64,000 bases of DNA, taken from IMG/VR virus record IMGVR_UViG_3300042009_000026, positions 160,001-224,000 of that record. One strand, 5' to 3'. Shown piece after piece: positions 31,903-64,000 of this stretch. The notes below the pieces were generated by a model, which saw only the letters and a list, made by a program, of their open reading frames with translations, searched no databases and was not told the DNA's origin. Each line of letters opens with the position of its first letter. Position 1 is the first letter of the stretch. This stretch comes from a virus (Duplodnaviria > Heunggongvirae > Uroviricota > Caudoviricetes). The translations under genes were made by a program, and so were the position numbers.

Positions 31903-34122
31903 ATGAATCTCGATTCACTGTTTAAACATAATGCACAGAAGCAATACACCCGCTTCTCGATGGAAGACTTCCTGGGCGCACTGGAAGCAGAACAGAACTA
32001 CGGCGACAGCGTTCTGGCTAAAGGTAAAGGCCTGGTAGAATTCATCAGTCAAGAAAACTTCGGCGACATCTCTGAAGCTCAACGTGGCACCGCTGGTCAA
32101 ATGTACCAGGACATCGGCGCTACCATGCAGAAGTTCGGTTTCGAACACTTCAAAGATAGCAAAGGCTATATCACCGAAAACCAACAGCGCGCTGCTACAG
32201 TTGCTGCTATTGCTTGCGCTGATCCAGAAGCTTACAAACGTGCCCTGCGTGCCGTTTCTAAAGAAGTAGTTTCCAACGAAGACAACGTTCACAACGTACG
32301 TCACGAATTCGGTGGTCCTGCTGGTACCCTGCAAGTTTTCCAAGACCACCTGGGTCTGGAAAACTACAACGAAAAATCTCAGCGTGACTTCCGCGTCGTA
32401 ACTGTTGGTTACAACCTCGAAGCTTCCCGTCAGGATGAGTTTGCTGAACGTCTGTACCCTACTACCGTTATCAACCCAGTTGAAGGTGGTGTTGTTCAGG
32501 TTCTTCCTTACATCGCTGTAATGAAAGACGTCTATCACGCTGTTAGCGGTGCTAAACTGCTGAACGAAGAAGTCAACATGGTAGAAGCATACCGTGACCC
32601 TTCGATCCTGGATGACAACTGCACTGACCTGATCCCTGCTGTTGATCCAGATGGTACCAACCTGAAGTTCTTCGTTGATCCACTTCTGGTTCCACACCAC
32701 GTTGTTACCAACGAACAGAACATGTCGGTTACCACTGGTCCTCTGAAGCCAAACGTTAAGATCGACCTGATGGGTAACTCTAACGCCAACCTGCTGATCA
32801 ACAAAGGCATGCTGGACGTTTCTGATACCATCGATCCAAGTGGTCGTCTGAAAGCTCTGTACGTCAAGTTCGACGGCAAAGTAGTTCGTTTCGTTGTTGA
32901 CCGTCTGCCTACCGCTGTATTCCAGCCTGGCCTAGTCGGTGACACCCGTATTGCTAAACTGGACTTCATCACTGAAGACCTGGTTGTTGGTGCTGACACC
33001 AAAGCAATCGACGGTTCGGTATCTGCTAACATGCAGGAACTGGTAAACCGTAAGTGGACCGCACGCATCTCCGTTACCTTCACTGGTCACGTATCCACTT
33101 CTCGTGGTGATGCTCGTTACGGCGCTGCTGGTATCGAAATCGACCGTATCGTCGACGAAGACCGCAAGCTGATCTCGATCGAAACTGGCGACGGTGCTGA
33201 TCTGGTTGCAGCTATCGGCGAACTCGAAGTTATCGGTTACGACCTGGACGTTAAGTTCACCAACACCAACCGCCGTCAGCGTGGTCACCTGTTGGCTACT
33301 CGCGCTATCCAGTTCCGTCACCCAATCCCGATGCACGCTCCGGTTACCCTGCCAATGTCCACCATGGATGAGCAAGGCCCAGGCGACGTCGTTAAGGCGC
33401 TGACTGTCAACACCAACATCCGTAACAGCAACAACGCTGTTAAACGTCTGCTGAACTACCTGGCTCAGCTGAAAGAAGTTGTTGGTAATGGTTACGACCG
33501 TCCTAAGTTCGGCGCTGTTGAAGGTGCTCTGAGCATCATGATGCGTCCAACCTACCGTGAAGGTTCGTTGCACCTGCCTGACCACATCGACACCCTGAAA
33601 TCTCAGGATCGCTGGCAGGACGTTTGCAGCACCATCTTGAACTTCGCTAAAGGTATCCTGTTCCCAGCATACCGCGAGTCCAACATCGAAGCTGCTTTCC
33701 GTGTAATCTCGGGCAACCAAGACGAGAAGCCAATGTTCATCTTCGCTACCGACAAAGAAATCGGTAACTACCTGATGACCCAAGGCGACGACCGTACTCT
33801 GGGCGCAATCCTGGAATACGACCTGGTAACTACCAACAACGAACTGTTCGATGGTAAACTGGTAATCGTTCCTACTCGTAAGAACCCAACCGAAAACGAC
33901 ATCCTGTCCTTCGGTCAGTTCTTCTACGTATCGACCGTGATCGCTGACCTGCCTATCACTCGTGGTGGCCAGCAAGTGACTCGTGAGATCGCAGCTGTTC
34001 CGTTCAACCTGCACGTGAACAACATCCCATTCGCAATCAACCTGACCATCACTGGTCTGGAAGAAGTAATGGGCAAATCGCAGTGGAACAAACCACTGAT
34101 CGATGCTATCACTACTCCATGA
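31903..34122 (+). CDS. Major capsid protein precursor (phiKZ gp120-like)
   Basis: 739 aa; strongest codon bias in window; GLE/NYNEKSQRDFRVVTVGYNLEASRQDEFAERLYPT matches the phiKZ MCP maturation region (E153/N154). Confidence 0.92.
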   Translation: MNLDSLFKHNAQKQYTRFSMEDFLGALEAEQNYGDSVLAKGKGLVEFISQENFGDISEAQRGTAGQMYQDIGATMQKFGFEHFKDSKGYITENQQRAATVAAIACADPEAYKRALRAVSKEVVSNEDNVHNVRHEFGGPAGTLQVFQDHLGLENYNEKSQRDFRVVTVGYNLEASRQDEFAERLYPTTVINPVEGGVVQVLPYIAVMKDVYHAVSGAKLLNEEVNMVEAYRDPSILDDNCTDLIPAVDPDGTNLKFFVDPLLVPHHVVTNEQNMSVTTGPLKPNVKIDLMGNSNANLLINKGMLDVSDTIDPSGRLKALYVKFDGKVVRFVVDRLPTAVFQPGLVGDTRIAKLDFITEDLVVGADTKAIDGSVSANMQELVNRKWTARISVTFTGHVSTSRGDARYGAAGIEIDRIVDEDRKLISIETGDGADLVAAIGELEVIGYDLDVKFTNTNRRQRGHLLATRAIQFRHPIPMHAPVTLPMSTMDEQGPGDVVKALTVNTNIRNSNNAVKRLLNYLAQLKEVVGNGYDRPKFGAVEGALSIMMRPTYREGSLHLPDHIDTLKSQDRWQDVCSTILNFAKGILFPAYRESNIEAAFRVISGNQDEKPMFIFATDKEIGNYLMTQGDDRTLGAILEYDLVTTNNELFDGKLVIVPTRKNPTENDILSFGQFFYVSTVIADLPITRGGQQVTREIAAVPFNLHVNNIPFAINLTITGLEEVMGKSQWNKPLIDAITTP

Positions 34123-34206
34123 AGGAATCCGGATAATGTTCGTCTACTAGAAGATGGAACAATCCGGTATCTGGAAGACGGTACTGTCCTACGGTACCAA
34201 GAGTAG
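34123..34206 (+). other. Putative stop-readthrough extension of MCP (27 codons, R-x-L-E-D-G repeats)
   Basis: In frame after TGA: RNPDNVRLLEDGTIRYLEDGTVLRYQE-TAG. It lies upstream of the terminator and matches the C-terminus of the 60484 protein. Confidence 0.65.
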
Positions 34207-34210
34207 CAAA

Positions 34211-34244
34211 CATACTGCCTCTCCTAGTGAGAGGCTTTATGCCG
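34211..34244. terminator. CATA-hairpin-TTTATGCCG element ending the MCP transcript
   Basis: CATACT-GCCTCTC-CTAGT-GAGAGGC-TTTATGCCG. Confidence 0.8.
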
Positions 34245-41811: not shown

Positions 41812-42240
41812 CTAGAAATGCAGTGTAACTGGATAAGGAGGCAACCAATTGATTGCATTAATCCGAGGAGTTAATGTTACAGACGTAGCTGCTGGTAGAA
41901 TAGTACCAAAGAAGAAGTCTTCATCGTAAACAGCAATGTCATAAACACTACGAAGCATTTCTAATATTTCCGTAGTGTTAGCATAATCCCCAGGCTTACC
42001 CACTAGCTTAACATCCTTCAAAGCATCATCGATACGATAGCGATTATAATAAACCACTTGCGAACCTTTGATACGAGTAGAAGTGGTCTTAGCCTGTATG
42101 GTTACTCGAGCATTACAATCATTCTGCAACCATACACCCGCATTAACAAAGTCGACATCTTTAATTTGGATAGCAGGCACGATCCCATGTAATGCACTGA
42201 ACTCATTCAAGAGTTTTTCTTTTGTGTCCGGTAAATACAT
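41812..42240 (-). CDS. Virion structural protein (Y-x-R-L-D/N domain family)
   Basis: SQVVYYNRYRI; similar to the 42248 and 60484 proteins. Confidence 0.6.
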   Translation of the reverse strand: MYLPDTKEKLLNEFSALHGIVPAIQIKDVDFVNAGVWLQNDCNARVTIQAKTTSTRIKGSQVVYYNRYRIDDALKDVKLVGKPGDYANTTEILEMLRSVYDIAVYDEDFFFGTILPAATSVTLTPRINAINWLPPYPVTLHF

Positions 42241-42247
42241 GTTAACC

Positions 42248-43123
42248 TCAATCGTAGTGCAGACGTAAGAAGCCTGTCATGTTAGAAGATAGATCACTAA
42301 GTTCTAATACCACTACACGGTAGAACTCAGAACGAGAAGTCCACTTAGGGATAGTCGCCCCATTGTAGACAACCTTACAATGTGGTTCACCATCTACTAA
42401 AGAATGGACGATGTTGTTAACGGCAGGAACAGATTGGATTTGGAACTTGATACCCGATGCCTGGAATAAAGGATTCAGTAGTTGTTCTGGGTTATGATAC
42501 AACCCAACTGGAAGATCCTTAAGACTATCTCGCCAACGACTGAAGTCATAACCATTCGTGCAGTAGTTACCATTGATTTTGGCAGGATCAGGTCGAACCG
42601 TTACTTCAGGAAACTCATTCGGTTTAGTTGTCAACGTAGAGATGTCAATCTTAGACGTATTAGTTAAACGAACGCGCAAGAAACCAACAAACCGTAAGGA
42701 CTTGTCATCCGCCTGAATAATTATATCGTTATCACCTACAGCATTGAATCGATCGAAAGTTTGATGGATGAAGTCATCTGTCTCAAATACAATCTCATTA
42801 CGTTTACCAAGCTTAGTCAGAATATCAATCGTGCTAATGGGTAACGTTAAACCACGAATGTCAACAGCAAAGGTATTGCGGAAGAACTCAGTGCAATTCA
42901 GTCGATCATAAGTGAATACCGTTTCGGTAATCTCTGGCATCATGTTAACTGGATTAGTAGAACGGTTCGGAATGATTTCAATCTGAGTTAGCTTAGGACC
43001 CAACTTAACCAGTTCCTTTAACTTCACAATTCCAGGTTGGAGTTGGAAATTATATTTGTCATTGATCATGTCACAAATAGCTTGCCATGAACCTACCTTG
43101 AGGTAGTCGCGTGTGATATACAT
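42248..43123 (-). CDS. Virion structural protein (phiKZ gp127-like)
   Basis: FTYDRLNC motif; synteny. Confidence 0.6.
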   Translation of the reverse strand: MYITRDYLKVGSWQAICDMINDKYNFQLQPGIVKLKELVKLGPKLTQIEIIPNRSTNPVNMMPEITETVFTYDRLNCTEFFRNTFAVDIRGLTLPISTIDILTKLGKRNEIVFETDDFIHQTFDRFNAVGDNDIIIQADDKSLRFVGFLRVRLTNTSKIDISTLTTKPNEFPEVTVRPDPAKINGNYCTNGYDFSRWRDSLKDLPVGLYHNPEQLLNPLFQASGIKFQIQSVPAVNNIVHSLVDGEPHCKVVYNGATIPKWTSRSEFYRVVVLELSDLSSNMTGFLRLHYD

Positions 43124-58634: not shown

Positions 58635-59282
58635 ATGCTTAAGATGCCGGAGAACTCAGAACCGTTTAAGATTCTGTCTTTAGACCCTGGCTCTTCGCAT
58701 CTAGGGGTAGCAATACTACTCGACATGTTGGATGGTTCAGACGTAACAATTGATGATTCCTTCACAGTTCATCTTAAAGACACCTGCCCAGAATATTCTG
58801 AATTGGGTGACTTGCATGGTAACCGCGTGATTCGTCTGATGCAACTCGGAGATGCTGTTTTAAATCTCGTGAGAACGCACAGGCCACATGCGGTGATTGT
58901 GGAGGCTAACTACTTAGGTCGTTTCGCTACTGCCTTCGCAGCGCTCGTAGAGTGCGTTGCAATGGTGCGTAGTGCTGTGTACATGTACGACCCATTCATG
59001 CCTCTTTATCAGGTTGACCCTTCCACTGCGAAGATCAATGCTGGTATGGAACGTATTAAAGGAACAGACAAGGAAGATGTACGTCGTGCAATGAGAAAGC
59101 GTAAAGGCGTCGCTTGGAACGTAAATCTAGAAGAACTAGACGAACACAGCGTCGATGCATGCGCCATTGGCGTGTACTGCGCAGAACACATTACACCTAG
59201 GGTAATGCCCGCCGAGCCAGTGAAGAAATTCACCAAGGCTAAGAAGGAACGCAAGAAGCGGAGACGAGGTAAAAGACGATGA
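58635..59282 (+). CDS. RuvC-like Holliday junction resolvase
   Basis: ILSLDPGSSHLG, VIVE, DKEDV, EHSVDACAIG acidic tetrad. Confidence 0.85.
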   Translation: MLKMPENSEPFKILSLDPGSSHLGVAILLDMLDGSDVTIDDSFTVHLKDTCPEYSELGDLHGNRVIRLMQLGDAVLNLVRTHRPHAVIVEANYLGRFATAFAALVECVAMVRSAVYMYDPFMPLYQVDPSTAKINAGMERIKGTDKEDVRRAMRKRKGVAWNVNLEELDEHSVDACAIGVYCAEHITPRVMPAEPVKKFTKAKKERKKRRRGKRR

Positions 59283-59785
59283 ATTTTTTCAAAGGTCTAC
59301 AGTGGTTCGAATGGCTCCTGATTGGTATCGTAGTTACGATGCTCGGAGCTTCATGGTTAATCTGGAACAAATACGATGAGCGCACACTAGAAGTCGGCGG
59401 TATGAAAGTCGAAAATAGTGTACTCACGGAGACGGTGAAATATAAAGATCAGTCCGCTACCATCTCGGATCAGGTTGTCGCTGAATTTGTTCAGGATAAA
59501 GAAGATGCGAAGGCAGAGTTGGAACAGTCACGTGAAGGAGTGATTGATGACTACATTAACATGGCAACAGCCACAACCGTTGCACCCGCGACAGTTGTGG
59601 ACGTCCCTAAAACAAAGGTTACAACGAGGCCAAAGGCAACTCAAACTCGGCCCGCCACCAAAGCATCTGATGATACTGGTGATCTTGCTCGTATTAGTCT
59701 CATGGCTAACAGGATGCGCGAGCACTACTGCACAGCTGCCCCAGAACGTGGTGTCGGCTGTAATGCCGGCGGTACTAACCAATGA
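59279..59785 (+). CDS. Inner-membrane spanin (i-spanin, Rz-like)
   Basis: N-terminal TM, coiled coil, C-terminal cysteines; overlaps a lipoprotein gene. Confidence 0.7.
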   Translation: MNFFKGLQWFEWLLIGIVVTMLGASWLIWNKYDERTLEVGGMKVENSVLTETVKYKDQSATISDQVVAEFVQDKEDAKAELEQSREGVIDDYINMATATTVAPATVVDVPKTKVTTRPKATQTRPATKASDDTGDLARISLMANRMREHYCTAAPERGVGCNAGGTNQ

Positions 59786-60020
59786 GTGTTACGTTTCTCC
59801 GCCTCCTACTGATGAAGACATCCTTAACGCTCCACAGCGTTATCGTGTAGCCGGTAAGATGTCGGATTGGGAAGCTCGTTTCCTGTTGATGTCTGATCAC
59901 TGGCTCCTACAAACTGACGCACTTGGCGTGTGTAATAAACAAGTGCGCAAATCACGTGAGTGGGTAAACAAACATCGTGGTTTGGAGAAGCCTAATGAAA
60001 ATCTCGGAAATCCTGAATGA
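59670..60020 (+). CDS. Outer-membrane lipoprotein spanin (o-spanin, Rz1-like)
   Basis: MILVILLVLVSWLTG-C lipobox, Pro-rich; starts inside the i-spanin gene in another frame. Confidence 0.7.
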   Translation: MILVILLVLVSWLTGCASTTAQLPQNVVSAVMPAVLTNECYVSPPPTDEDILNAPQRYRVAGKMSDWEARFLLMSDHWLLQTDALGVCNKQVRKSREWVNKHRGLEKPNENLGNPE

Positions 60021-60396
60021 GATCGACCAGAGTCCGATTTCCTCTCACTCAACTGCAGCATTAATGATTGGTTATCTGAACAGTGAATTAGCACTGGTCG
60101 GAGAGACCGCATTGACTTCGAGCTCTACGGGCGCAGAAGCCATCGCTGCAATTTACAAAACCCCACGTGAAAAGCAAGATGTTATTTTCCAAAAGGACTT
60201 TACGTCTATTCGGAAGAAAGACAGTTACAAGTTCATGGTTCTATCCATGGCTGTTCTTGCTGTAGTGGCGGGGGCTGGTTTCGCTGGAAGCGTAGCTAAG
60301 TTGGAAGGAGAGGCAGCGGCAGGTGTGACGGACGTATTCAAAGTTCTGATCACCGGGTTGTTTGAAATTGCTAAAATGCTTATTTCAGGTCAATAA
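59995..60396 (+). CDS. Membrane protein, holin candidate
   Basis: RBS GGAG, ATG 59995; C-terminal TM plus amphipathic helix; in lysis cluster. Confidence 0.5.
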   Translation: MKISEILNEIDQSPISSHSTAALMIGYLNSELALVGETALTSSSTGAEAIAAIYKTPREKQDVIFQKDFTSIRKKDSYKFMVLSMAVLAVVAGAGFAGSVAKLEGEAAAGVTDVFKVLITGLFEIAKMLISGQ

Positions 60397-60405
60397 AAAT
60401 ATACT

Positions 60406-60437
60406 GTCCGTCCCTTAAGGGGACGGACTTTATTATG
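60406..60437 (+). terminator. Hairpin terminator
   Basis: GTCCGTCCC-TTAAG-GGGACGGAC-TTTATTATG. Confidence 0.75.
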
Positions 60438-60483
60438 CTATGTGGATTAATCAACTTTGTAACCACAGGACTGAGGTTTAAAC

Positions 60484-61023
60484 ATGATCACTACAGATCG
60501 TTTCCCGTATGACATGCCTTCCCGCGACGCGCTCGTGGAACAGGTGAATCGTGACTTGCAACGGAACTACAAACCGAACCAAGTTAGTTTTGAAGATATG
60601 TTCTTTGCTCCTCTGCCTGCTATCCCTGGCCGTACGTTTATTGAGATGACTAGTCGCCTTACTGGCCTAAAGGAATTCTTTGTATATCGCCGGTTAGATT
60701 TGGCTAATCCTAAGGCACTGGGCACAAGTACTCGCATTAAAGTGTTGGGACAACCGTCTCCAGCCAGTATCGCAAACGAAATTAATCGCAGCCGTCTGAT
60801 GTCATTCGGCCCTGATGATATTTCATTCTCCACGGTAGTTATCCAACCTCCTGAGAACACATTCGTCTATCGCTTGAAAGCGATGACAGGCAGTTACGCT
60901 TACTTCGGCGAAACAGACATTATCGTTGAAATTATGGAAGCTAACCCGTACGCTCGTTATCTTGAAGACGGCGATGCCCGGTTGATGGAAACCGGCGAAA
61001 TTCGTGAACTCGAACACGCCTGA
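60484..61023 (+). CDS. Virion-type protein (YRRLDL domain) with C-terminal R-x-L-E-D-G repeats
   Basis: RBS GAGG; FVYRRLDL; ends NPYARYLEDGDARLMETGEIRELEHA. Confidence 0.7.
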   Translation: MITTDRFPYDMPSRDALVEQVNRDLQRNYKPNQVSFEDMFFAPLPAIPGRTFIEMTSRLTGLKEFFVYRRLDLANPKALGTSTRIKVLGQPSPASIANEINRSRLMSFGPDDISFSTVVIQPPENTFVYRLKAMTGSYAYFGETDIIVEIMEANPYARYLEDGDARLMETGEIRELEHA

Positions 61024-61033
61024 GGTATATGAC

Positions 61034-61618
61034 ATGGCTATTCAAAACGCTATACTCGATTCTATTCCTTTACCTAAAGCGAATAAGTCTCGTGCAGCAG
61101 CTATTCCAACCCTAGAAGCTATCGGCAAGATTACTGGCATGTCCCCGACATTGTTGGCTACCTTCGCATCGATTGAATCGGGATTTGATTACACTGTCAA
61201 AGCATCGACATCAAGTGCAACTGGTTGGTTCCAACATCTAAATAAAACTTGGGATGATATCCTGGCGTTAACTAATGCCAAGTACAGTCTTAAGGATGAT
61301 GCTCAGCGTAGTCTCCGTTTAGATCCTCGAGCCAATGGCTTGATGGGCGCTGAACTGTTGAAGGACAATGCTCGCATTCTTCGGAGTGGCCTGGGACGTG
61401 AACCTAATGATACTGAACTATACGCCGCACATTTCTTCGGTGTTGGTGCAGCTAAGAAGTTCTTACTAGCGGATCGTAAAGCACTGGGTAAGGACTTATT
61501 CCCTAAACAAGCTGAAGCAAACGTTGGTATCTTCTACGCTCGTGATAAGAAGACAGCCCTGTCAATCGCACAGATTATCGATTTACTCGATTCTAAGGTT
61601 GCGAAACACCGTGGCTAA
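61034..61618 (+). CDS. Endolysin, lytic transglycosylase (phiKZ gp144 catalytic domain only)
   Basis: ANKSRAAA, FASIES (catalytic Glu), SSATGWFQ, LMGAEL, AHFFG all match KZ144; RBS GAGG before ATG 61034. Confidence 0.92.
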   Translation: MAIQNAILDSIPLPKANKSRAAAIPTLEAIGKITGMSPTLLATFASIESGFDYTVKASTSSATGWFQHLNKTWDDILALTNAKYSLKDDAQRSLRLDPRANGLMGAELLKDNARILRSGLGREPNDTELYAAHFFGVGAAKKFLLADRKALGKDLFPKQAEANVGIFYARDKKTALSIAQIIDLLDSKVAKHRG

Positions 61619-61646
61619 TAACGCCAGATAAAGAAAGGACAAAGCC

Positions 61647-62981
61647 ATGAGCGGAGCACCAGCTGCACCAAACAAAAACATGCTTTCTGGTATGGAGCCA
61701 CTTCTCACCCTTAATGGTGATGAATTTGTAGAAGTAGTTAAAAGAGCTATCGATGGTAAATATAAAAACTACCGGGTACTAGCTAGTAAACTAAGAGATG
61801 CATCCACAGCGTATGATTTCGCTGTGGAGAATGGTTTTCAGGGTACATTAGGACAATGGCTCGATTGTACTCGTGCGCTCTATACTCCTGACCCAGCTTC
61901 GAATGGTAAAGTATTCGTGGCGGATACCCAAGGTATTGGACAATGGGTCGAAGTTAATATCGGCATTGTCGAAGGGTTGCAAGAAGAACTAGATCGCGTC
62001 TTATCTCAAATCGACACATCTACGGGGGTAGCTGCAGACGCGGCTACCGCTGCAAGGTTGGCAGCAGAACAAACAGCCGCAGACGTTGTTGAATCAACAG
62101 CAGTTAAAAATACGACTGCGGACTTCGCTACTGCAGCACAAACTTCTGCTCAACAAGCAGCTAGCTCTAAAACAGCAGCCCAGGGTTCTTCATCGACTGC
62201 ACAAACAGCAGCAACTCAGGCAATTGATGCCAAAGATGCAGCTGAAACATTTGCGGCTAATGCCGAGGGTTCATTTGCAGCAGTAGTTGCGGCTAAGGAC
62301 ACTGCGGTAGGTGCAGCGACTACAGCTGTTTCTGCGAAAGATGAAGCTGTATCGATGCGTCCAGTAATTGATGAAATGACAGAAGCAGCAGAAGTAGCTT
62401 TGGCTAGTACCAATGCAGCACTTACGGAAACACGTAATGCACGTGATGCAGTAGTGGGTGCTGAAGCAGAGTTGGATTTGATGAAGTTGTCATTGGCAGC
62501 AATTACTGCTGACCCGACTAACGCTGTGGTATCATGGGAACTCGGTGCCAAAGACTTTAACTTGGTTCAAGGCGGGGCAACGTTTAAAGCTGTTGCAGCT
62601 CGACTTGCTGGTTGGAGTATGCCTGACGAAGTAGCATCTTACCTGACTACTGTTGTTTCATTGCCTAGTCATTGGGCAACCATGGACATCTATGTCAAAT
62701 GGGTAAACGAAGTGGCTAACGTAGGTAACTGTGTACTCGGTGGTGAGATCCACAAATGGAAAGTTGGAGAGACCATGAACGCTACTCCTGCGGGTGGTTC
62801 TGGTGTAATGGCGGCTAACCCGTCTCCGTATATCGTCATTGAATCTAAGGTTGCTTCTGCACTAGTGCTCGATCCGACCCGCATGACGACTATCCGTATT
62901 GCTCGTCAAGGTGCATCAGTTAACGACACATTGCTGAATGCGATGACAATCTTTTCTATCAGATTGGTTAAGACATCATGA
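61647..62981 (+). CDS. Fibre-like virion protein: N-terminal anchor, Ala-rich stalk, C-terminal beta domain
   Basis: LSGMEPLLTLNGDEFVEVV, TAYDFAVENGFQGTLGQWL, ~150 aa A/T/S-rich stalk. Confidence 0.7.
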   Translation: MSGAPAAPNKNMLSGMEPLLTLNGDEFVEVVKRAIDGKYKNYRVLASKLRDASTAYDFAVENGFQGTLGQWLDCTRALYTPDPASNGKVFVADTQGIGQWVEVNIGIVEGLQEELDRVLSQIDTSTGVAADAATAARLAAEQTAADVVESTAVKNTTADFATAAQTSAQQAASSKTAAQGSSSTAQTAATQAIDAKDAAETFAANAEGSFAAVVAAKDTAVGAATTAVSAKDEAVSMRPVIDEMTEAAEVALASTNAALTETRNARDAVVGAEAELDLMKLSLAAITADPTNAVVSWELGAKDFNLVQGGATFKAVAARLAGWSMPDEVASYLTTVVSLPSHWATMDIYVKWVNEVANVGNCVLGGEIHKWKVGETMNATPAGGSGVMAANPSPYIVIESKVASALVLDPTRMTTIRIARQGASVNDTLLNAMTIFSIRLVKTS

Positions 62982-63160
62982 ACATTACTTATGCATCAGA
63001 AGGTCCTGGGTCACTGTTTACTATCCATGGAGAAATCGATGGCTTTGAACATAGCGCTACTGTGGATGCTTCGCTGACCGAAACCATGACTCGCGAGGAA
63101 GCTACTGCACTCGGAGAGTCTTTAATCCAAGAGGCGTACCAACGCTATCTTGAGGAGTAA
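62978..63160 (+). CDS. Small acidic protein
   Basis: ATGA coupling; 60 aa. Confidence 0.6.
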   Translation: MNITYASEGPGSLFTIHGEIDGFEHSATVDASLTETMTREEATALGESLIQEAYQRYLEE

Positions 63161-63165
63161 CTGCG

Positions 63166-64000
63166 ATGATGATTCCCTTATGGCAGTCAGGTATTCCAGG
63201 TTCACCTGCAGTGCGGGTGATGCCACCGAATCCACTTTACGTGGATACAGTGATCGGCACCGACAAAGGTAAGGGTACATTAACTGAACCTTTACGGTCA
63301 TTGGATGACGCTCGTTTGATGTGTGCTGGGTTGCCTAATTGGGTAATTAAAATCCATGCTCCATTAGAAACACCACTCCGTCAAGAAGTGGTATATGAAT
63401 CCACTGCCGATCTAACAATTGAAGGCATTGCTGCTAATGACCAGTGGTATGTATACGGTTCAGAAGTTGTTTCTGACTGGACGCCACTGGGCGATGGGTT
63501 ATATAGCAAAGCCATGGTTGACTGGACATTAATCCTATTCGCGGTAGTCACCACGATGCAGGAACTAGTTGGCGATCGGATGTTTCAACGTAAGTTGTTG
63601 GCTAGTGATACACCAGCTACACCCAATGAAGGTGAGTTTGGTTACACCGGCGGTACGATGTATATCAAGCTAGTAGGTGGAGTTGATCCAAACCTACATG
63701 TGATCGAAGTAGCCAAACGTAACACTGGGCTAGGTACACGGGGTCATGGGTTACTCAAGATCCGAAATATGTACGGGCGTTATTTCCTCAGTGCAGGCAT
63801 TAAGAATGGCCTGGCCTTTAACCCACTGGGTACTGGGAATCTAATTGCTGAAGATTGCGTCATTGAATACACCGCAGGTAGCGGTTTCGCTGCCGTTGGA
63901 CAAACCGAACTAACGACATGTATCCGTTCCAAGGCATATCGATGTGCAAACGACGGGTTTAACCTACATGGTCTGTCTGGTGCTTCATTGATGTTGTTGT
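63166..64000 (+). CDS. Right-handed beta-helix (pectin-lyase-like) protein, 3'-truncated
   Basis: Not in ORF track because it has no stop in the window. RBS GAGGAG; LYVDTVIGTDKGKGTLTEPLRSL leader; later IAEDCVIEY..GSGF and CANDGFNLH beta-helix repeats. Confidence 0.7.
   Translation, partial: MMIPLWQSGIPGSPAVRVMPPNPLYVDTVIGTDKGKGTLTEPLRSLDDARLMCAGLPNWVIKIHAPLETPLRQEVVYESTADLTIEGIAANDQWYVYGSEVVSDWTPLGDGLYSKAMVDWTLILFAVVTTMQELVGDRMFQRKLLASDTPATPNEGEFGYTGGTMYIKLVGGVDPNLHVIEVAKRNTGLGTRGHGLLKIRNMYGRYFLSAGIKNGLAFNPLGTGNLIAEDCVIEYTAGSGFAAVGQTELTTCIRSKAYRCANDGFNLHGLSGASLMLL

Follow-up and report, generated by a model that had tools for sequence, protein, structure and literature searches.

A portable three-repeat tag on a capsid extension and on a gp143-like protein of a phiKZ-like phage as a candidate docking peptide for trimeric fibres

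Two copies of the same three-repeat peptide are encoded in the window, i.e. the whole 64,000-nt stretch analysed here, which originates from a giant Pseudomonas phage with a 317-kb genome: one follows the TGA stop codon of the major capsid protein gene, the other forms the tail of the protein encoded at 60484-61023. Both belong to a widespread, portable family of tags, and our main reading, to which we give a probability of about two in three, is a plug and socket pairing in which two carriers, the capsid readthrough form among them, hold socket-bearing fibres. In the proposed mechanism, the three-repeat peptide would serve as a portable plug and the N-terminal module of about 45 residues of gp145-type fibres as its socket. 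A single plug would lie on the axis of the fibre trimer with each repeat clamped between two of the three N-modules, whereby a carrier present in a single copy could hold a three-fold fibre, and one repeat per trimer chain would explain why every tag has exactly three repeats. The first carrier would be the gp143-like DUF7941 protein (60484-61023) and the second a minority variant of the major capsid protein arising from readthrough at the TGA at 34120-34122, while the cargo would consist of four socket-bearing fibre proteins, of which the one encoded from 61647 is the nearest. What we infer in this scheme comprises the binding of the proteins, the readthrough and its rate, the outward position of the capsid tag and the fibres on the head. 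If true, it would amount to a general rule of phage architecture, according to which a 24-residue three-repeat peptide on any virion protein mounts a trimeric fibre, and which would help in reading unannotated tail modules and in predicting the location of fibres. The features concerned are listed in Table 1.

Table 1. Positions of the features in the window, with the basis of each assignment.
Feature	Position	Strand	Basis
Major capsid protein gene, 739 aa	31903..34122	+	Pfam PhiKZ_MCP E 5.9e-225, PHROG 3231
Candidate readthrough stop TGA, next base A	34120..34122	+	invariant in phiKZ-like capsid loci
In-frame capsid extension with three-repeat tag, 27 codons (34123-34203), stop TAG 34204-34206	34123..34206	+	protein-level conservation
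Likely terminator following the extension, a hairpin with 7-bp stem and 5-nt loop plus T-run	34217..34239	+	read from sequence
Two DUF7941 paralogs, 142 aa and 291 aa, phiKZ gp126/gp127 equivalents	41812..43123	-	PF25613 E 4e-9 and 2e-17
Upstream lysis genes: i-spanin 59279-59785, embedded o-spanin frame with L-T-G-C lipobox (within 59544-60020), holin 59977-60396	59279..60396	+	ORFs, gene order
Proposed carrier protein, 179 aa, phiKZ gp143 ortholog: DUF7941-type N-terminal part and C-terminal tag	60484..61023	+	tblastn, PHROG 2935 E 2e-33
Three-repeat tag (putative plug) of the carrier, residues 154-179	60943..61020	+	R, E, G columns invariant among orthologs
Endolysin, SLT transglycosylase domain, phiKZ gp144 equivalent	61034..61618	+	PHROG 4067 transglycosylase E 2e-41, Pfam SLT E 3e-4
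Fibre protein, phiKZ gp145 type, 444 aa, Ala-rich middle	61647..62981	+	N-terminus matches phiKZ gp145 and PHROG 15433 residues 3-75
Putative socket formed by the fibre's N-terminal module, residues 1-48 approximately; predicted contacts 9-14, 31, 38-41	61647..61790	+	hhalign, predicted complex
ORF, 60 aa, overlapping the fibre stop	62978..63160	+	no family match (Pfam, PHROG)
Start of a 409-aa protein without socket module, ending at window-equivalent 64395	63166..64000	+	PHROG 16653 'hydrolase' weak E 2e-9, no Pfam match

Each of the two tags is composed of three eight-residue units of the form R-x-L-E-D-G-x-x; in the carrier tail (60943-61020), N-P precedes three units of the type R-x-[LM]-E-[DT]-G. 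Both lie at the extreme C-terminus, the third unit standing two residues from the end of the 60484 protein and the capsid extension ending at its third unit. A six-frame search of the 317,367-bp genome with a strict and a loose regular expression returned these two tags and one chance match outside the ORFs, and there was no third ORF site. The tag family is defined here by a profile made in this analysis (three tandem units R-x-[LIT]-E-[DN..]-G-x-x with invariant R, E and G), as no published family was found for the three-repeat tag. A profile built from unrelated phages, without the two window tags, matched the capsid extension (E 1.6e-11) and the 60484 tail (E 4.3e-5) among 8,767 six-frame segments, with the runner-up at 0.23. 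The sequence-only reading had claimed that the 60484 protein and the frame behind the capsid TGA (34123-34203) share this peptide and that the fibre begins with a distinct N-terminal module, and both are borne out: besides this fibre and phiKZ gp145, the module opens three further proteins of the genome (1159, 199 and 1360 aa, at genome positions 224407, 240597 and 241838), so that four proteins of this phage carry it. This count, the wide spread of the tag and the place of the 60484 gene in a lysis cassette go beyond the sequence-only reading, which had also called the 63166 product a beta-helix protein; the sole family match of that product is the weak 'hydrolase' match to PHROG 16653.

Beyond this genome, a pattern scan of IMG/VR yielded 47 tag matches compared with about 0.4 expected by chance, a figure which is our own estimate from the information content of the pattern; the third repeat, which the pattern does not demand, was still found in most of them. 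Nearly all of the 47 matches stand at the extreme C-terminus, on tail tube (Pfam Phage_tail_2), distal tail, tail and mini-proteins, and a few fibre-like proteins (L036, L071) bear the tag N-terminally. Co-occurrence of the tag and the fibre module, named as a check by the sequence-only reading, was found in unrelated phages in both directions, using the general socket signature K-I-S-x-L ... E-[IV]-V ... N-K-K. In the forward test, the tagged gene was followed by a socket gene within -4 to +12 nt in 10 of 18 families, and conversely, of 25 socket genes sampled independently and without regard to the tag, 15 were located directly behind an ORF ending in a three-repeat tag. The socket genes of these unrelated phages are fibre-like. 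The adjacent partner is absent in 8/18 tagged families and in 10/25 socket genes, and in the largest tagged family, which is tail-tube-like, the next gene is head-tail connector-like and not a socket gene. Neither window tag has a directly adjacent socket gene: fibre gene 61647 lies two genes 3' of the 60484 gene, with the endolysin gene in between, and 27 kb from the capsid gene.

The distribution of the tag would also be compatible with a self-contained surface decoration, e.g. a small adhesive or self-associating beta unit, in which case the proximity to fibres would reflect that both belong to the accessory equipment of tail modules. Carriers of the tag range from tail tube, distal tail and tail proteins to the capsid protein, and Ig-like decorations are likewise spread over varied structural proteins; the eight tagged families that have no adjacent socket gene and the N-terminal tags on fibre-like proteins point in the same direction. 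We nevertheless regard such a decoration as very unlikely, because the socket gene starts within 12 nt of, or overlaps, the stop of the tagged gene in 10 families, and because general co-location would not give the precision with which 15 of the 25 independently sampled socket genes directly follow a tag. The interface modelled below, which falls on conserved residues of both partners while both types of control remain at 0.02 or less, argues against it as well.

The middle part of fibre 61647 shows weak matches to tail-fibre PHROGs, and its N-terminal socket module was compared with the general socket, i.e. the modules behind tagged genes of unrelated phages. The profile-profile comparison with hhalign resulted in a probability of 76.5% (E 2.2e-5) over 24 columns, which is moderate support, and when the general socket profile was ranked over the ORFs of the genome, three of the four socket proteins were in the top five. 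The phiKZ-type socket profile gave no match in the unrelated tagged loci because the sockets have diverged. To count these missing matches as evidence against co-occurrence was considered and rejected, as inspection of the downstream genes and the comparison of the profiles reveal the relation.

The complex of three N-termini of fibre 61647 with one 60484 tail was predicted with our own shallow alignments (15 and 9 rows), a chosen stoichiometry of 3:1 and the 60484 tag only, and reached an ipSAE of 0.77 (runs 0.74, 0.78 and 0.77) compared with 0.02 for the best control. The partner pLDDT was at least 66, and at least 96% of the contacts were shared between runs. This exceeds a pass mark that 58 out of 80 solved complexes attain, as do 2 of 110 mismatched pairs; for a prediction with supplied alignments, these counts apply only roughly. 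In the model, residues 9-14, 31 and 38-41 of all three fibre copies meet residues 156-169 and 171-179 of the carrier, so that the interface consists of exactly the tag and the conserved residues of the fibre module; the tag sits in the trimer axis, and repeats 1, 2 and 3 are distributed one each over the three fibre copies. Since neither the tag nor either socket alignment has a sequence match in the PDB, the result is unlikely to echo a solved structure. The proposal of the sequence-only reading that the repeat is a docking peptide and the fibre N-module its binder gains support from this prediction, which it had suggested itself, and from the forward and reverse adjacency tests. That the tag trimerises by itself in the manner of a foldon, or forms a triple beta-helix cap, was dropped as the main reading, as the carriers include hexameric proteins and proteins in a monomeric context and the model contains one tag per trimer.

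In known anchoring systems, such as the T7 gp17-type N-terminal anchors, the K1-5/SP6 adaptor and the Klebsiella 'anchor-branch' arrangement, a conserved N-terminal part docks on a conserved site of the virion and the distal parts can be swapped. Unlike in these systems, to which no sequence relation was found, the partner on the virion side would be a peptide of three repeats and 24 residues, which any carrier could acquire at its end and which the model places within the trimer axis; the tag and the general socket have no match in Pfam, PHROG or the PDB, and the N-terminus of the window fibre matches PHROG 15433. No Pfam family exists for the tag or the socket, and literature searches for the motif strings returned unrelated words only and no paper describing a tag-socket system.

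The capsid extension evolves as a coding sequence behind an invariant TGA. In 21 distinct capsid loci from phiKZ, PhiPA3, PS119XW, Viktualia, Psa21, D6, RVTF4, 201phi2-1, Phabio and metagenomic relatives, the capsid frame first ends at TGA, with an in-frame extension behind it in all cases (21/21), while the second stop varies between TAA, TGA and TAG; in the genome as a whole, TAA is used 143 times, TGA 76 times and TAG 31 times. The invariant Arg, Glu and Gly of the extension are encoded by up to five synonymous codons, CGN/AGR switches included. In the outgroup chimalliviruses LucasX, RAY, DT01 and RSL2, the capsid gene ends with TAA and carries no tag (4/4). The DNA of the capsid gene is 88% identical to its Psa21 counterpart, and a hairpin is kept at the same site in the relatives with differing stem sequences. 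No in-frame ATG, GTG or TTG occurs in the extension. A conserved UGA with an in-frame extension under protein-level selection is the pattern of readthrough of the Q-beta A1 type, and the invariant TGA combined with synonymous codon turnover at invariant residues argues that the extension is very probably a product of stop-codon readthrough. A low-copy display on the capsid, set by readthrough, would fit the conserved TGA and the coding-type substitutions.

In Q-beta, a leaky UGA ends the coat gene, and the C-terminally extended coat protein A1 is incorporated into the shell in a low copy number set by readthrough; with about 195 residues, the extension forms a folded domain that this small RNA phage needs for infection. 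The coat extension proposed here would likewise arise at a leaky UGA with its copy number set by readthrough; however, it concerns a 317-kb dsDNA phage and would add only 27 residues as a proposed docking peptide for a separate fibre. A minor fraction of capsid or tail subunits with a surface-exposed C-terminal piece is also known from the frameshift product 10B of T7 and from recoded Ig-like domains. These share with our proposal the addition of a C-terminal piece by translational recoding, but they arise by frameshifting and the piece acts by itself, whereas here the stop codon would be read through and the piece would recruit another virion protein. If true, a dsDNA phage would offer a case of programmed stop-codon readthrough in its capsid gene, and this within the nucleus-forming jumbo phage family that has been studied best; the published phiKZ capsid and virion models would miss a minor capsid species and its cargo.

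The pairing may also be true for the gp143-like carrier only, with a capsid extension that is too scarce or points inward, so that nothing is displayed on the head and the extension has a different function or is a relic confined to the clade. The genome encodes no suppressor tRNA with the anticodon UCA, and the capsid loci compared show no obvious conserved stimulatory element 3' of the TGA beyond A or G at +1, both of which would suit an inefficient extension, and text searches of the available parts of the phiKZ capsid and virion papers turned up neither a readthrough product nor head fibres (PMC13250141, PMC11297242). According to the accessible text of the capsid paper, the C-terminal arm is modelled to the last annotated residue, and the arms sit at the centre of the hexamer around a 9 Å pore; the direction of their six-helix bundle is not stated there (PMC11297242). 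The same text describes contacts of the C-terminal arm with the exterior protein gp244 in pentons, which speaks against an inward tag (PMC11297242). A relic would decay, but the extension is the best match of the genome to the general tag profile, and the TGA (21/21) and the extension are conserved, with synonymous turnover, as deep as phiKZ, 201phi2-1 and Psa21. Overall, we consider a pairing limited to the gp143-like carrier unlikely.

A more far-reaching form of the two-carrier pairing is put forward tentatively, as possible but short of probable: phiKZ-like heads would carry a few dozen gp145-type fibres on readthrough capsid subunits, the leakiness of the stop would set their number, and the gp143-like plug would mount the same fibres at the tail. 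If true, this would place the essential gp145, which is otherwise unplaced in the virion, and would fit the GenBank record of phiKZ, in which gp145 and gp146 are labelled 'structural head protein'; head fibres could serve the first contact with the cell or its flagellum. A text search of the phiKZ virion atlas, in which 40 proteins are modelled, found no mention of gp143, gp145 or gp146 (PMC13250141). In transposon sequencing of phiKZ, five insertions were obtained in orf143 and none in gp145 and gp146 (10.1101/2025.11.23.690004); therefore, gp143 is not the only essential anchor.

By tblastn, the carrier was found in 69 Pseudomonas phage records, PHIKZ143 included, with the tail covered in all of them. 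Its match to DUF7941 (PF25613; E 0.0019, 18.1 bits) is below the Pfam gathering cut-off of 27, the match to PHROG 1037 is weak, and the AF2 monomer has a mean pLDDT of 73; its phiKZ ortholog gp143 is listed as DUF7941 in the Goslar preprint (10.64898/2026.04.21.720040). DUF7941 proteins of chimalliviruses are described there as virion proteins of head-to-tail filaments, proposed to sit at the peripheral baseplate, some of them with host-recognition domains (10.64898/2026.04.21.720040). The carrier is of the same family, but in Goslar the DUF7941 module is itself fused to the recognition domains, whereas here the module ends in a tag proposed for a separate fibre. The preprint mentions neither the tail motif nor the capsid extension, and a text search for 'readthrough' was empty (10.64898/2026.04.21.720040). 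The tag is absent from both DUF7941 paralogs of the window, and docking of the tag onto the DUF7941 N-domain, after the head-to-tail model, was considered first and looks less likely, as these paralogs have no such motif.

The carrier gene is also part of a lysis cassette of the phiKZ type (i-spanin, embedded o-spanin with lipobox, holin, gp143, SLT endolysin), which corresponds to the order gp141/141.1/142/143/144 in phiKZ, as given in the available text (PMC12894885). The 60484 protein might instead be a cytoplasmic lysis regulator only, with a tail for holin control or turnover and a predicted complex that is an artefact or reflects a cytoplasmic coupling of fibre supply to lysis timing. 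In the accessible parts of the published work, phiKZ gp143 is a cytoplasmic holin regulator that advances holin triggering and can block a truncated holin, and an AlphaFold model places it on the holin's N-terminal domain (PMC12894885). In every relative, the gene is flanked by those of the holin and the endolysin, and orf143 is non-essential (10.1101/2025.11.23.690004). We judge a purely regulatory role improbable: the holin model uses the first globular domain and not the tail (PMC12894885), several records, those of phiKZ and KTN4 included, label the orthologs as virion structural proteins, and the Goslar preprint places gp143 among the DUF7941 proteins, the proposed peripheral-baseplate associates (10.64898/2026.04.21.720040). 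Phages that lack this cassette also carry the tag on tail-tube and distal-tail proteins, which argues for a role in the virion. The carrier gene is orthologous to that of phiKZ and occupies the same slot between holin and endolysin; the regulatory role described there is exerted via the first domain, the C-terminal repeats are not treated in the available text (PMC12894885), and the role as a virion adaptor would be additional or alternative to it. The position of the endolysin gene is syntenic with phiKZ and Psa21, and an alternative, earlier start (GTG at 61004) is present in the ORF listing.

The window corresponds to positions 160001-224000 of a phage genome of 317,367 bp with direct terminal repeats. 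The source is a phiKZ-like nucleus-forming jumbo phage. At the DNA level it is closest to Psa21 and D6, both phages of Pseudomonas syringae, and to RVTF4. The gene map was based on ORF calls, family searches, the phiKZ map and a paper on the lysis cassette (PMC12894885), and it identifies the region 59279-61618 as a complete phiKZ-type lysis cassette with the fibre genes behind it. The features are compiled in the table. Orthologs of the 179-aa protein encoded at 60484 (phiKZ gp143) were found by tblastn in 69 records, all of them Pseudomonas phages, and the matches always reach within 1-2 residues of the C-terminus. The phiKZ equivalent of the endolysin, gp144, additionally forms part of the neck of the virion (PMC13250141).

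Features of the capsid, lysis and fibre regions (window positions unless marked as genome)
Feature	Position	Strand	Remarks
Major capsid protein, 739 aa	31903-34122		Pfam PhiKZ_MCP, E 6e-225; stop TGA at 34120-34122
Capsid extension, 27 in-frame codons	34123-34203		stop TAG at 34204-34206
Hairpin and T-run	34217-34239		behind the extension
Two DUF7941 paralogs	41812-43123	-	phiKZ gp126/gp127 equivalents
i-spanin	59279-59785		lysis cassette
o-spanin frame, embedded			L-T-G-C lipobox; lysis cassette
Holin	59977-60396		single TMD; lysis cassette
Carrier protein, 179 aa	60484-61023		phiKZ gp143 ortholog; C-terminal tag at 60943-61020
SLT endolysin	end 61618		lysis cassette
Fibre, 444 aa	61647-62981		N-terminal module
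ORF, 60 aa	between fibre and 63166 gene		overlaps fibre stop; socket-less
Hydrolase-like protein, 409 aa	start 63166		socket-less
Module genes	61647-64000 and genome 224407-245920		socket-less proteins in between
tRNA-Trp (CCA)	genome C1:59937-60012		outside the window

The sequence-only reading had proposed that two matching peptide tags, one at the end of the 60484 protein and one behind the capsid stop codon, are the receptor for the N-terminal module of the fibre, here referred to as the socket. Both tags were confirmed, each consisting of N-P followed by three R-x-[LM]-E-[DT]-G-x-x units, and no further real tag site was found with strict and loose patterns in all six frames of the whole genome. 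When a profile containing only tags of unrelated phages was searched against 8,767 six-frame segments, it retrieved the capsid extension (E 1.6e-11) and the 60484 tail (E 4.3e-5), followed by the next segment at 0.23. The two DUF7941 paralogs have a Y-x-R-[LI]-D core in common with the 60484 protein and lack the tag.

The tag has no counterpart in Pfam or the PDB and is widespread among phages. IMG/VR was scanned with a degenerate DNA pattern covering two units (R-x-L-E-[DN]-G-x-x-R-x-L-E-D-G), which matched 47 stretches, with less than one expected by chance as estimated from the information content of the pattern. About a dozen of these are phiKZ-like capsid or gp143 loci. The rest are phage contigs without relation to them, mostly small, and almost every one has the tag peptide at the protein end and a third unit, though the pattern needed only two. 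The carriers include tail-tube-like proteins (Pfam Phage_tail_2, E 4e-21), one distal tail protein, large “tail proteins” (PHROGs 1101 and 376), a 554-aa family, repeat proteins, and mini-proteins of 44-61 aa. The tag is N-terminal in two Gly/Thr-rich fibre-like repeat proteins (L036:9310-10107 and L071:8040-8954), and a 185-aa protein (L041:2716-3270) carries two tags in tandem; these arrangements hint at fibre-on-fibre branching or double mounts.

Genes with LEDG tails and genes with the fibre module are coupled as neighbours in unrelated phages. In the unrelated tagged loci, the next gene starts -4 to +12 nt relative to the stop of the tagged gene, and a socket is found at its start in 10 of 18 carrier families, the consensus being M-A-x-K-I-[ST]-x-L, an acidic stretch ending in E-[IV]-V, and then N-K-K. 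The socket proteins are fibre-like, matching tail collar fibre repeats, Phage_fiber_rpt, DUF5907 and minor tail PHROGs. The N-termini of the window fibre and of phiKZ gp145 have the same architecture, and a profile-profile comparison of the phiKZ-type modules (alignment A3) with those behind tagged genes in unrelated phages (A4) gave a probability of 76.5% (E 2.2e-5). In the reverse direction, IMG/VR was scanned for the module alone, which yielded 25 new, distinct module genes; 15 of them lie directly behind an ORF ending in three looser units, R-[ILV]-[TL]-E-x-[GN]-x-x. These looser tags are beyond the reach of the original tag pattern, so tag and socket are associated whichever of the two is taken as the starting point. 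The chief exception is the family of tail-tube-like proteins, whose next gene is connector-like and not a socket gene. In this Phage_tail_2-type family of about 160 aa (L038, L039, L047, L050-L052, L061, L063, L068, L075, L076), the gene that follows encodes 146 aa, and the cargo, if any, must be encoded elsewhere.

Within the phage genome, the module heads four proteins, namely the fibre and proteins of 1159, 199 and 1360 aa further downstream, and a search with the general module profile put three of these four in the five best-ranked ORFs of the genome, matching at the N-terminus in each case. The count is then two plugs, i.e., tags, to four candidate cargoes. Psa21 has fewer genes in this fibre region, which suggests a gain of fibre genes by the phage of the window.

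For the complex, the C-terminal part of the 60484 protein (residues 128-179, alignment A6) was modelled together with three chains of the fibre N-terminus (residues 1-130, A5). The resulting ipSAE of 0.77 (runs 0.74, 0.78 and 0.77), as opposed to 0.02 for the best control, supports the claim that the fibre module is the binder of the LEDG tail; partner pLDDT did not fall below 66, and the runs had at least 96% of their contacts in common. In the calibration, 58 of 80 solved complexes and 2 of 110 mismatched pairs scored this high, which is a rough guide here given the self-made alignments and an input that is not a simple pair. From each of the three fibre copies, residues 9-14, 31 and 38-41 take part in the predicted interface, and from the carrier residues 156-169 and 171-179, i.e., the tag and nothing else; on the fibre side, the contacts fall on the motifs that are conserved among sockets. 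In the model, repeats 1, 2 and 3 are touched by residue 12 of copies 1, 2 and 3, respectively, and the L-E-D of each repeat also by residue 41 of the adjacent copy. This pattern would place one tag along the trimer axis and assign one repeat to each chain. Such an arrangement would account for the fixed number of three repeats and would let a single carrier hold a three-fold fibre. The carrier alone was predicted with a mean pLDDT of 73, and of about 67 in the tail, where the beta bridges are spaced eight residues apart. Together, sequence comparison and model support the plug-and-socket interpretation. Both the modular docking of fibres and minor capsid forms made by recoding are known in kind. 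What is new is the occurrence of the tag-socket system among phiKZ-like jumbo phages, a capsid protein that would acquire the tag via a conserved TGA, and the predicted model of one tag per trimer.

The capsid gene ends were compared among seven GenBank phages (Psa21, D6, RVTF4, PhiPA3, KTN4/phiKZ, PS119XW and Viktualia) and 15 IMG/VR contigs, 201phi2-1 and Phabio among them, resulting with the window in 23 loci with 21 distinct sequences. At every locus the first stop is TGA, followed by 25-30 in-frame codons with three units and then TAA, TGA or TAG. The invariant Arg, Glu and Gly are each encoded by several synonymous codons across the loci (second Arg: CGG, CGT, CGA, AGA and AGG; Gly: all four codons), and the constraint therefore acts on the peptide and not on the RNA. 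The extension, behind its conserved TGA, behaves as a coding sequence. It contains no in-frame ATG, GTG or TTG. The position of the hairpin behind it is kept in relatives with different stem sequences. The long ORFs of the genome end in TAA (143), TGA (76) and TAG (31). In the distant chimalliviruses LucasX, RAY, DT01 and RSL2, the capsid stop is TAA and the tag is absent. Serratia phage PCH45 (L114) has a TGA followed by an open frame of 49 codons of unrelated sequence with no LEDG units, which may be due to chance or represent a different readthrough extension. The simplest reading of the LEDG extension would be low-level UGA readthrough, which also generates the A1 protein of Q-beta; no mention of readthrough at the phiKZ capsid stop was found in the searchable literature. 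None of the ten phage-encoded tRNAs has a UCA anticodon. The D-stem of the phage tRNA-Trp is G-T-T-C / G-A-A-C, with A at position 24 paired with U11, as in the Hirsh UGA suppressor, a form of E. coli tRNA-Trp, and this tRNA might boost readthrough of the capsid TGA. A tRNA-Trp is not known from phiKZ, so it would not be required across the whole clade.

In a preprint on phage Goslar, phiKZ gp143, gp126 and gp127 are listed as DUF7941 proteins, which are proposed to form head-to-tail filaments anchored at the peripheral baseplate; some of those in Goslar are fused to carbohydrate-binding or hydrolase domains (10.64898/2026.04.21.720040). A DUF7941 protein ending in a fibre plug would realise this design non-covalently. 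On the capsid side, a structural study describes the C-terminal arm of the phiKZ capsid protein as modelled to residue 747, the last annotated one, with the arms forming a six-helix bundle round a 9 A pore at every hexamer centre and contacting the exterior protein gp244 in the pentons (PMC11297242). Because of this arm position, the extension could emerge at the capsomer centres. The GenBank record of phiKZ labels gp145 and gp146 as “structural head protein”. Three points speak against the interpretation. Searching the text of the phiKZ atlas, which covers 40 virion proteins, gave no mention of gp143, gp145 or gp146 (PMC13250141). By transposon sequencing, orf143 is dispensable in phiKZ and gp145 and gp146 are without insertions (10.1101/2025.11.23.690004), and plasmid-expressed gp143 changes holin timing, according to the cassette paper (PMC12894885). 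An essential fibre therefore cannot depend on gp143 as its only anchor. These findings leave room for gp143 to act in lysis as well, or for another anchor, for example the tag behind the capsid gene.
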